Assembly (NCBI GenBank): GCA_964016885.1
Contig: OZ024740.1
Span: forward strand, 200,632,001 to 200,696,000
DNA from: Eledone cirrhosa
Taxonomy: Eukaryota
Reading direction: 5' to 3'
Length of the DNA: 64,000 nt
The position numbers and the translations under genes are program-made. Below the pieces are notes generated by a model. The model had not been told where the DNA came from, did no database searches, and saw only the letters and a list, made by a program, of their open reading frames with translations. How positions within the stretch are numbered: the stretch's first letter is position 1; every line of letters starts with the position of its first letter. This document shows positions 27,164 to 27,811 of the stretch, in pieces.

Positions 27164-27811
27164 AAGTAAAAATTAGCGAGAATCGAATTTCAGCCCATGA
27201 ATTAACGAGAAACACTTTCGAATTGTGAGGCAAGCGCTCTATAATTCAAATGAATTAGAGCTTACAACTTACGTTAAAGGCCAAACACACTGAGATGGTG
27301 GTTAAACTAATCATCCACACAGCGAAGATTCGATCTCCTATTTCGGGTCAAACAGATATACAGATATAAAAATATATGAAAATATAAATGTTTGAAACTC
27401 ACCCAGACCCCTGGGATGATGGTAAAGTCCAGTGTTGGGGTTTCTGCGGCTCCATAAGTCATTTACTGTCCACTTACATAAAGGATGTTAAGTTTCTTGT
27501 ATCCTGACTGAACTAGGAGTACGCGTTGTCAACGGGATTCAGTTCGAAAGTCTACAAAGATGTGTCTGTAACTGACCCCACGTGGGGTTCAGCAAGGGAG
27601 GCAACACCTAAATTAGGCGATTAAATTCTTTTGTGTATAATATTGCGAAAATGCAAAATATCACAAATCGAATGAAGCTCTCGACAGAGTGGTTAAATAT
27701 AACAAAGCTATTCGGCAGTCAATAGAATAGACCAAAACCAGTCAATAAAATTAACTGGCCAATAGGTAGATTCTGGAGATTAATACAAGTAAAAATTAGC
27801 GAGAGTCGAAT
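27164..27811 (-). mobile_element. 623-nt non-coding terminally redundant unit in (TA)n (homologue of 37102-37772)
   Basis: 25-bp direct repeat at 27164 and 27787; collinear sequence blocks shared with 37102-37772 in opposite orientation. Confidence 0.75.

Follow-up and report, generated by a model that had tools for sequence, protein, structure and literature searches.

The window, by which we mean the whole 64-kb stretch of DNA analysed, carries insertions of a non-coding, 0.6-kb repeat that belong to different subfamilies:

27165..27811, minus strand: subfamily A insertion, consisting of a 623-nt monomer and, from a second monomer, a 24-nt 3' piece
37102..37772, plus strand: subfamily B insertion, consisting of a 59-nt 3' piece and one 612-nt monomer, with (TA)n tracts on either side
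27945..28352, plus strand: 5'-truncated subfamily C copy with the same core (GUUGA 28009-13, AGAAAG 28092-97, GGGUC 28129-33; helix CAGGU/ACCUG 28134-38/28164-68)

The units at 27 kb and 37 kb lie on opposite strands, are 63-64% identical, and are both embedded in (TA)n, with short apparent terminal repeats of 24 and 59 nt, respectively. These 'terminal repeats' are the remains of a truncated upstream monomer; in the subfamily A unit, the apparent terminal direct repeat is the 24-nt 3' piece, and the fixed 3' end adjoins (TA)n at 27164.

The family comprises at least 7,400 cores in G000, an animal genome of 3.0 Gb: the core pattern has 7,414 matches compared to 286 for a control, and the motif from which an earlier, sequence-only reading of the window set out (GAAA, a stem and GUC) has 1,619 exact matches compared to 9 for the reversed control. 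Six subfamily queries returned 2,582-4,475 first-look candidates each. There are more than 12 subfamilies; the 12 subfamily consensuses are 47-92% identical to each other, and further subfamilies turned up later. No open reading frame is common to the subfamilies, the longest ATG frame on the sense strand being 82 aa. A search of the whole 64-kb window against Rfam gave no matches at the gathering score, and at E values up to 10, in seven loci, no ribozyme match fell within the unit (two HH9 matches both lie in the flanking DNA of one locus, L100), so that the comparison with Rfam ribozymes proposed in the sequence-only reading identified no known ribozyme there. ARAGORN predicted no genes in the seven loci. 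Thus, neither Rfam nor ARAGORN detects the Pol III RNA-derived head of a tRNA-, 5S- or 7SL-derived SINE, and the numerous runs of five or more U inside the unit argue against Pol III. A metagenome scan produced 11 matches, the best with a family-HMM E value of 0.04, which we attribute to chance; among viral contigs, there was one match.

Covariation and the parts of the fold

Several tests were applied to the fold across subfamilies. For nine consensuses, RNAalifold yielded a score of -137 with 39 of the 148 pairs changed on both sides, compared to -90±7 (best, -112) and 18±4 two-sided pairs (maximum, 27) in 40 tree simulations started from the real majority root. A nesting-free stem scan of 12 consensuses found 23 stems with at least two two-sided columns and 9 with at least three, the corresponding values in 100 simulations being 10±3.7 (maximum, 20) and 1.3±1.3 (maximum, 7); the reverse strand gave 21 covarying stems. 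In a curated 113-pair structure, 84.8% of the cells are paired in 12 real copies and 44 of the 113 pairs are two-sided, compared to 28±3.5 in shuffles (none of 500 reached this number) and 15-25 when the structure was slid, in a test that leans in favour of the structure, which was curated on these same sequences. Both window copies fold better than all 20 shuffles (z-scores of -2.9 and -2.2). Among invariant runs, UUAAU, GUUGA and AGAAAC are the longest, and there are three invariant unpaired runs of five or more nucleotides (p 2e-4). As far as computational tools reach, the repeat carries a real, selected RNA-like structure. The multi-copy alignment and RNAalifold analysis that the sequence-only reading called for thus gives a fold that beats the simulated nulls, and its proposal of a structure under selection holds across 12 subfamilies with tree-simulated nulls as well as out of sample, true partners giving better pairing of helix P7 than permuted ones in 16 new loci (p 1e-4).

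The predicted parts of the fold, in the order of the RNA and with the coordinates of the 27-kb copy, are as follows:

27679..27779, minus strand: 5' domain with helices P1 and P2
27510..27545, minus strand: probable pseudoknot helix GAACUG (27545-40)/UAGUUC (27515-10), with the invariant GUUGA (27533-29) in between (equivalent in the 37-kb copy, plus strand: GGAC 37388-91/GUCC 37419-22, GUUGA 37400-04)
27446..27524, minus strand: core helix P7, GCGUA-CUCC/GGAG-CCGC, with P8 and hairpin P9 inside
27401..27445, minus strand: the motif of the sequence-only reading, namely the invariant AGAAAC junction, a variable hairpin ACCC...GGGU, C, and the CGGGU strand (equivalent in the 37-kb copy, 37486-37531)
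27344..27405, minus strand: helix P11 (CGGGU/ACCCG, CAGGU/ACCUG), at the base of an AT-rich loop whose length is free
27217..27227, minus strand: 3' strand of the long-range helix P3, with its partner at 27672-27662, closing most of the monomer
27165..27176, minus strand: UA-rich linker, single-stranded, at the junction of monomers; insertions terminate here with short matches to (TA)n

In this model, the best-supported core (about 37388-37493) lies just upstream of the motif and consists of GUUGA, the P7-P8 stack, the probable pseudoknot and AGAAAC. The strongest covariation in the stem scan is that of P7, with all five columns two-sided; its variants include GUAAA/UUUAC in B and AUGAA/UUCAU in I. 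The pseudoknot helix crosses P7 and is supported at p 0.02 over all 28 loci and at 0.053 over the new loci only; GAACAA/UUGUUC, GGACGG/CCGUCC and AGGAA/UUCCU are clear cases, and three others are weak.

All sequences quoted in the sequence-only reading are present. In the 37-kb copy, on the plus strand, these are AGAAACCC (37486-93), GGGTC (37522-26), GCTAGA/TCTAGC (37499-504/37516-21), CGGG/CCCG (37527-30/37585-88), GCTGAA/TTCAGC (37336-41/37357-62), the GCTC..GAGC hairpin (37671-96) and GATAGAGGGC/GCCCTCTGTC (37461-70/37695-704); in the 27-kb copy, on the minus strand, they are CTGG/CCAG (27429-32/27411-14) and TGGGT/ACCCG (27401-05/27344-48). Covariation of the helices built from them stands for the whole fold, which exceeds the controls, but is uneven for individual helices: two-sided pairs amount to 2 of 4 in ACCC/GGGU, 1 of 5 in CGGGU/ACCCG and 5 of 9 in the GCUC hairpin, and to none of 4 in the inner CUGG/CCAG helix, the columns of which are misregistered for the 37-kb row and which is replaced in H and I. 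The GCUGA hairpin is present where it was proposed, but C, F, C2, G, H and I conserve it poorly. The long-range correspondence between GATAGAGGGC and GTAAGTG results from misregistration, the two sequences not being aligned: in the 27-kb copy, GTAAGTG (27471-77) forms the 3' side of a local hairpin (80% of the cells paired), and the aligned long-range helix is only the short G(A)CAG/UUG(C)C (77% of the cells paired). Nor does the claimed strand bias of G-U pairs survive an unbiased choice of stems, given that stems picked by Watson-Crick pairs only contain 33 G-U compared to 30 A-C; the excess (134 vs 63) appears only in the structure curated with G-U allowed, which is also how the several best helices with 16 vs 0, 9 vs 0 and 10 vs 2 were selected. 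The assignment of the sense strand rests on truncation polarity instead.

From its sequence, the unit appears to lack a hammerhead. The GAAA-stem-GUC arrangement, found in nearly all subfamilies, had been taken for the 3' half of one: as in a type I hammerhead, GAAA is followed by a hairpin (in the place of stem III) and by UC, which conforms to UH, and B carries CUGAUAGA at 37459-66. The unit differs, however, in having no CUGANGA core joined to stems I and II, no stem II at all, and a strand after UC that pairs downstream rather than upstream. A descriptor scan for hammerhead types I, II and III, allowing up to one core mismatch, was run on the sense strand of 12 consensuses in dimerised form; it found both positive controls and nothing in the consensuses, including the site in question; the same scan of the antisense strand gave one unconserved match. 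When two mismatches and 2-bp stems were allowed, matches appeared in 7 of the 12, none of them in B, and at inconsistent places. Exact CUGANGA occurs only in D2 and E, within helix P2, which confirms the earlier remark that no copy of this motif is correctly placed. The GAAA itself belongs to the invariant AGAAAC junction after P7, and the hairpin that this junction closes is free in length and loop; the UUUACCAUC loop differs in G and J, and H and I have another in its place. There is no indication of a cut at 37526.

Insertions, arrays and resident Penelope-like elements

We sampled 161 distinct insertions, a set biased to the top full-length matches. The same end position is found in 155 of the 161, whereas the 5' ends are scattered; (TA)n is present at the fixed end in 152 insertions and at the other end in 113. 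Head-to-tail tandems with seamless junctions occur in 105, and a 5' inversion was flagged in 7, two of which may be artefacts of TA runs. The unit thus shows the fixed 3' end, 5' truncation, partial tandems and 5' inversions of a non-autonomous element mobilised by a Penelope-like element (PLE), and shares its microsatellite target with the resident PLE clade; the sequence-only reading overlooked this identity, that of a PLE-type non-autonomous retroelement, as well as the most conserved core. Length is unchanged at nearly all of 113 junctions, and insertions end at 2-3 alternative TA matches in a single UA-rich linker (27165..27176), so the template must extend past the insertion end; we infer that this linker is the priming region. 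Neighbouring repeats have derived variants in common about four times as often as repeats from different loci do (1.86 vs 0.44% in A, 0.83 vs 0.22% in B), and in subfamily B the difference is 1.2% between neighbouring repeats compared to 3.1% to other loci. Among the sampled insertions, there was neither junction heterogeneity nor a favoured 5' end outside TA-like sites that would mark a cut.

Longer arrays are formed by subfamily J, which is 84% identical to B, supplies the majority of the first 100 core matches listed, and is currently active. Four arrays in 45 Mb of C1 of G000 (13.09, 36.02, 36.13 and 44.27 Mb; L276-L282) repeat one identical 615-bp unit, the core counts being 16, 16, 7 and 13, in stretches of 8-10 kb of identical units; two of the four adjoin assembly gaps. 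In one J array, the same variant recurs in 5 of 12 units that are not adjacent, which is unlike the product of a single monomer circle. Subfamily B forms an array of about 64 units (about 39 kb; G000:C1:81.709-81.749 Mb, L168-L170) with an internal higher-order duplication. The arrays show how a single retrotransposition-like event can lead to a 10-kb satellite seed. In a separate observation on run X4, a single 362-nt B-like contig makes up nearly all of the depth over 340 nt of 37170-37700; its variants are almost absent from run X1, and contigs span a J-type junction. If X4, a run of unrecorded type, were RNA, this contig would point to one dominant source, but the observation carries no weight in what follows.

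The window also contains a representative of the candidate helper class:

2645..5700, minus strand: decayed autonomous Hydra-type PLE (reverse transcriptase, RT, with a C-terminal GIY-YIG domain), carrying a variant of the type I hammerhead near 2710 and ending in (TA)n

Intact relatives of this element encode a 713-aa ORF with RWR, DKT, CNCRNRADC (CxCX5C) and YIGLT. By the Hydra-clade criteria of PMC8557442, the family, assigned by motifs rather than by a tree, has the RWK-like motif, DKT, CxCX5C, GIY-YIG, a hammerhead and a (TA)n target; Pfam returned nothing in the Hydra ORF. There are 25,407 first-look candidates in the genome, and the many open frames of more than 600 aa suggest that the family is probably active. 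Like the unit, the Hydra-type PLEs of this genome occur as partial tandems and inverted copies, with one end fixed in (TA)n; a type I hammerhead lies about 25 nt before their end. In all copies seen, including those in the window (2645-5700, minus strand, and 1767-2072), the hammerhead core reads CAGAAGA rather than CUGANGA. In other families, (TA)n follows a canonical type I hammerhead at the end of the element; these occur in the window at about 11560-11700 (minus strand) and in loci L005, L086, L096, L109, L161 and L216, and diverged fragments of other PLEs lie at 12725-13401 and 43860-44491 (plus strand).

The HMM of the repeat family found no match beyond the units themselves in PLE copies or in about 860 kb of fetched DNA. 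Similarity between the 3' end of the unit and that of the Hydra family of the window is weak (p from 0.02 to 0.6, below 0.05 in 4 of 12), in a comparison that covered one Hydra family in full and other PLE families as fragments. With no homologous autonomous element found and this weak similarity, the helper can be named by class only. The B motif TATTGAGCCCTCT (37686-37702) resembles TATCGAGCCCT at a frequent 5' start of the Hydra PLE (5685-5698, minus strand), a likeness that may be due to chance.

Mobilisation of the unit and alternative readings

We favour, with moderate confidence, the view that the unit is a non-autonomous parasite of a Penelope-like retrotransposon and that its fold is a protein-binding scaffold rather than a catalyst, the scaffold role being reached by exclusion only. 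Under this scenario, transcription of tandem copies by RNA polymerase II would give one continuous RNA, multimeric or circular, with all monomers folding alike; the fold would bring in a PLE protein with RT and GIY-YIG domains, supplied in trans; (TA)n would be nicked by its endonuclease, with the UA-rich linker between monomers serving as the annealing partner of the nicked DNA; and the RT would then copy from 3' to 5' across one to sixteen or more junctions until a random stop. The class of helper is suggested by the anatomy and the (TA)n target that the unit shares with the Hydra-type PLEs of the genome. In PMC8557442, Naiads and Chlamys are described as spreading with such tandems and without a hammerhead; accordingly, the anatomy of the unit requires no ribozyme.

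Hydra-clade PLEs (PMC8557442), which are abundant in this genome, share with the unit a (TA)n target, one fixed 3' end, truncation at the 5' end, partial tandems and 5' inversions but are autonomous, about 3 kb long, and endowed with a type I hammerhead near a 3' end that is only weakly similar. Non-autonomous Chlamys elements, such as MRC1, are alike in their pLTR-like partial tandems, multicopy insertions arranged head to tail and, for the clade, absence of a canonical hammerhead; they resemble their autonomous partner at the 3' end, whereas for the unit no partner was found, and the unit further differs in its animal host and (TA)n target; the passages of the same source consulted here describe no conserved fold for Chlamys. 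Animal non-LTR retrozymes (PMC7229834; bioRxiv 10.64898/2026.07.22.740005) are likewise non-coding, low in GC, dispersed as dimers to large multimers, and found together with PLEs; dimers to 62-mers, circles and a hammerhead are reported (PMC7229834). The unit consists of dispersed non-coding tandem repeats as well, but differs in its length (about 600 nt vs about 220-350), the lack of the type I hammerhead that each retrozyme repeat carries, its multi-domain fold with a probable pseudoknot, and the absence of detectable homology to a PLE pLTR.

The invariant unpaired GUUGA and AGAAAC around the probable pseudoknot fit a catalytic core equally well. We consider it unlikely, if the foremost of the alternatives, that the unit is a retrozyme with a new ribozyme, in which a pseudoknotted core (GUUGA, PK, P7, P8, AGAAAC, GGUCC) cuts the tandem transcript into circular monomers and the RT rolls round them. 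The perfect 16-unit arrays would fit such a process, and so would the strand order PK5'-P7 5'-PK3'-P8-P7 3', which recalls P3-P7-P8 of group I introns with P4-P6 missing. Group I introns have the order P3-P7-P8, with the P4-P6 domain and the P, Q, R and S elements between P3 and P7; the unit itself was rejected as a group I intron, there being no P4-P6 (the two strands are about 16 nt apart) and no Rfam match. Likenesses to motifs of hairpin, glmS and pistol ribozymes, RNase P, LSU rRNA and telomerase RNA were dropped in the same way, with no Rfam support and no CCCUAA template. The anatomy, too, is that of non-LTR retrozymes, which use a hammerhead for such processing (PMC7229834); against this, the hammerhead-less PLEs described in PMC8557442 spread without known ribozymes. 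A new ribozyme is further disfavoured by the lack of Rfam ribozyme matches within the unit, by the absence, among the sampled insertions, of junction heterogeneity or a favoured 5' end off TA-like sites, by the modest support for the pseudoknot, and by the recurrent variant within one J array. Marginally less likely still is the proposition that a large ribozyme of a new class, self-cleaving or ligating and with a pseudoknotted GUUGA-P7-P8-AGAAAC core, replaced the hammerhead in an animal retrozyme lineage, giving 600-nt RNA circles around which the telomerase-related PLE RT would roll up to 16 or more times per insertion.

A doubtful alternative is that the unit originated from, or mimics, a host RNP, following the logic of SINE heads, and that a motif resembling a 5' splice site binds U1 snRNP and aids long Pol II read-through. 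The 5' strand of P11 resembles such a site (CRG|GU), GU is present there in 27 of 28 subfamily representatives and the +5 G in 16 of 28, and PLEs retain introns (PMC8557442). However, the GU lies within helix P11, which can explain its conservation; the next AG is only 24-26 nt away in G, H and I, too short for an intron; a spliced B copy has no matches in the genome; and there is no Rfam or tRNA match and no telomeric template. Back-splicing as the origin of template circles was ruled out, given that genomic copies keep the loop.

A rolling-circle DNA element, similar to Helitrons/Helentrons or Replitrons and with the structure residing on a single-stranded DNA intermediate, is a poor candidate. 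One fixed end, long homogeneous arrays and the outcome of the unbiased pairing test, with no G-U excess, would suit it, but truncation at random, fixed ends with short TA matches, and 5' inversions characterise PLEs and target-primed reverse transcription and are shared by the Hydra PLEs of the genome, and several of the best helices, selected with G-U allowed, have many G-U and hardly any A-C. Helitrons and Helentrons are recognised by TC...CTRR ends or subterminal inverted repeats, with both ends defined; in the consensuses and the 161 insertions, the unit lacks this signature, including conserved TC...CTRR ends. To our knowledge, a 600-nt multi-domain fold is atypical of rolling-circle elements. 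A variant or split hammerhead cutting after GGGUC (37526) is, on the scans described above, the least credible reading of all.

The literature search turned up no account of a structured PLE parasite from animals that lacks a hammerhead; Repbase and Dfam, where the repeat may be catalogued without its structure, and the HHR_half_core cases in the supplements of PMC8557442, which may bear on novelty, lay outside its scope. Retrozyme surveys define their elements by the hammerhead and are therefore blind to such a family. How PLEs recognise their RNA and copy it into partial tandems, and what the hammerhead does, are stated as open in PMC8557442. The family offers a compact test system, namely a short, active, non-coding substrate with a covarying fold and a putative priming linker, along with intact 713-aa PLE ORFs, and would be either a structural element, the first of its kind, by which a telomerase-related RT recognises RNA in trans, or a new natural animal ribozyme.

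Within the window, long palindromes and inverted duplications, most of them centred on (TA)n, lie at 45113-45898, 44814-45096, 33990-35218, 60826-61047 and 2178-2493, and similar ones are found in the flanks of the fetched loci. The decayed transposon ORFs at 16142-17733 (minus strand), 30572-31081 (minus), 38306-38797 (plus) and 62216-63951 (minus) presumably represent hAT transposase, pieces of LINE RT/endonuclease, and L1/Tx1-type RT, as they read. A minisatellite of about 12 copies of a 43-bp unit occupies 20629-21172.
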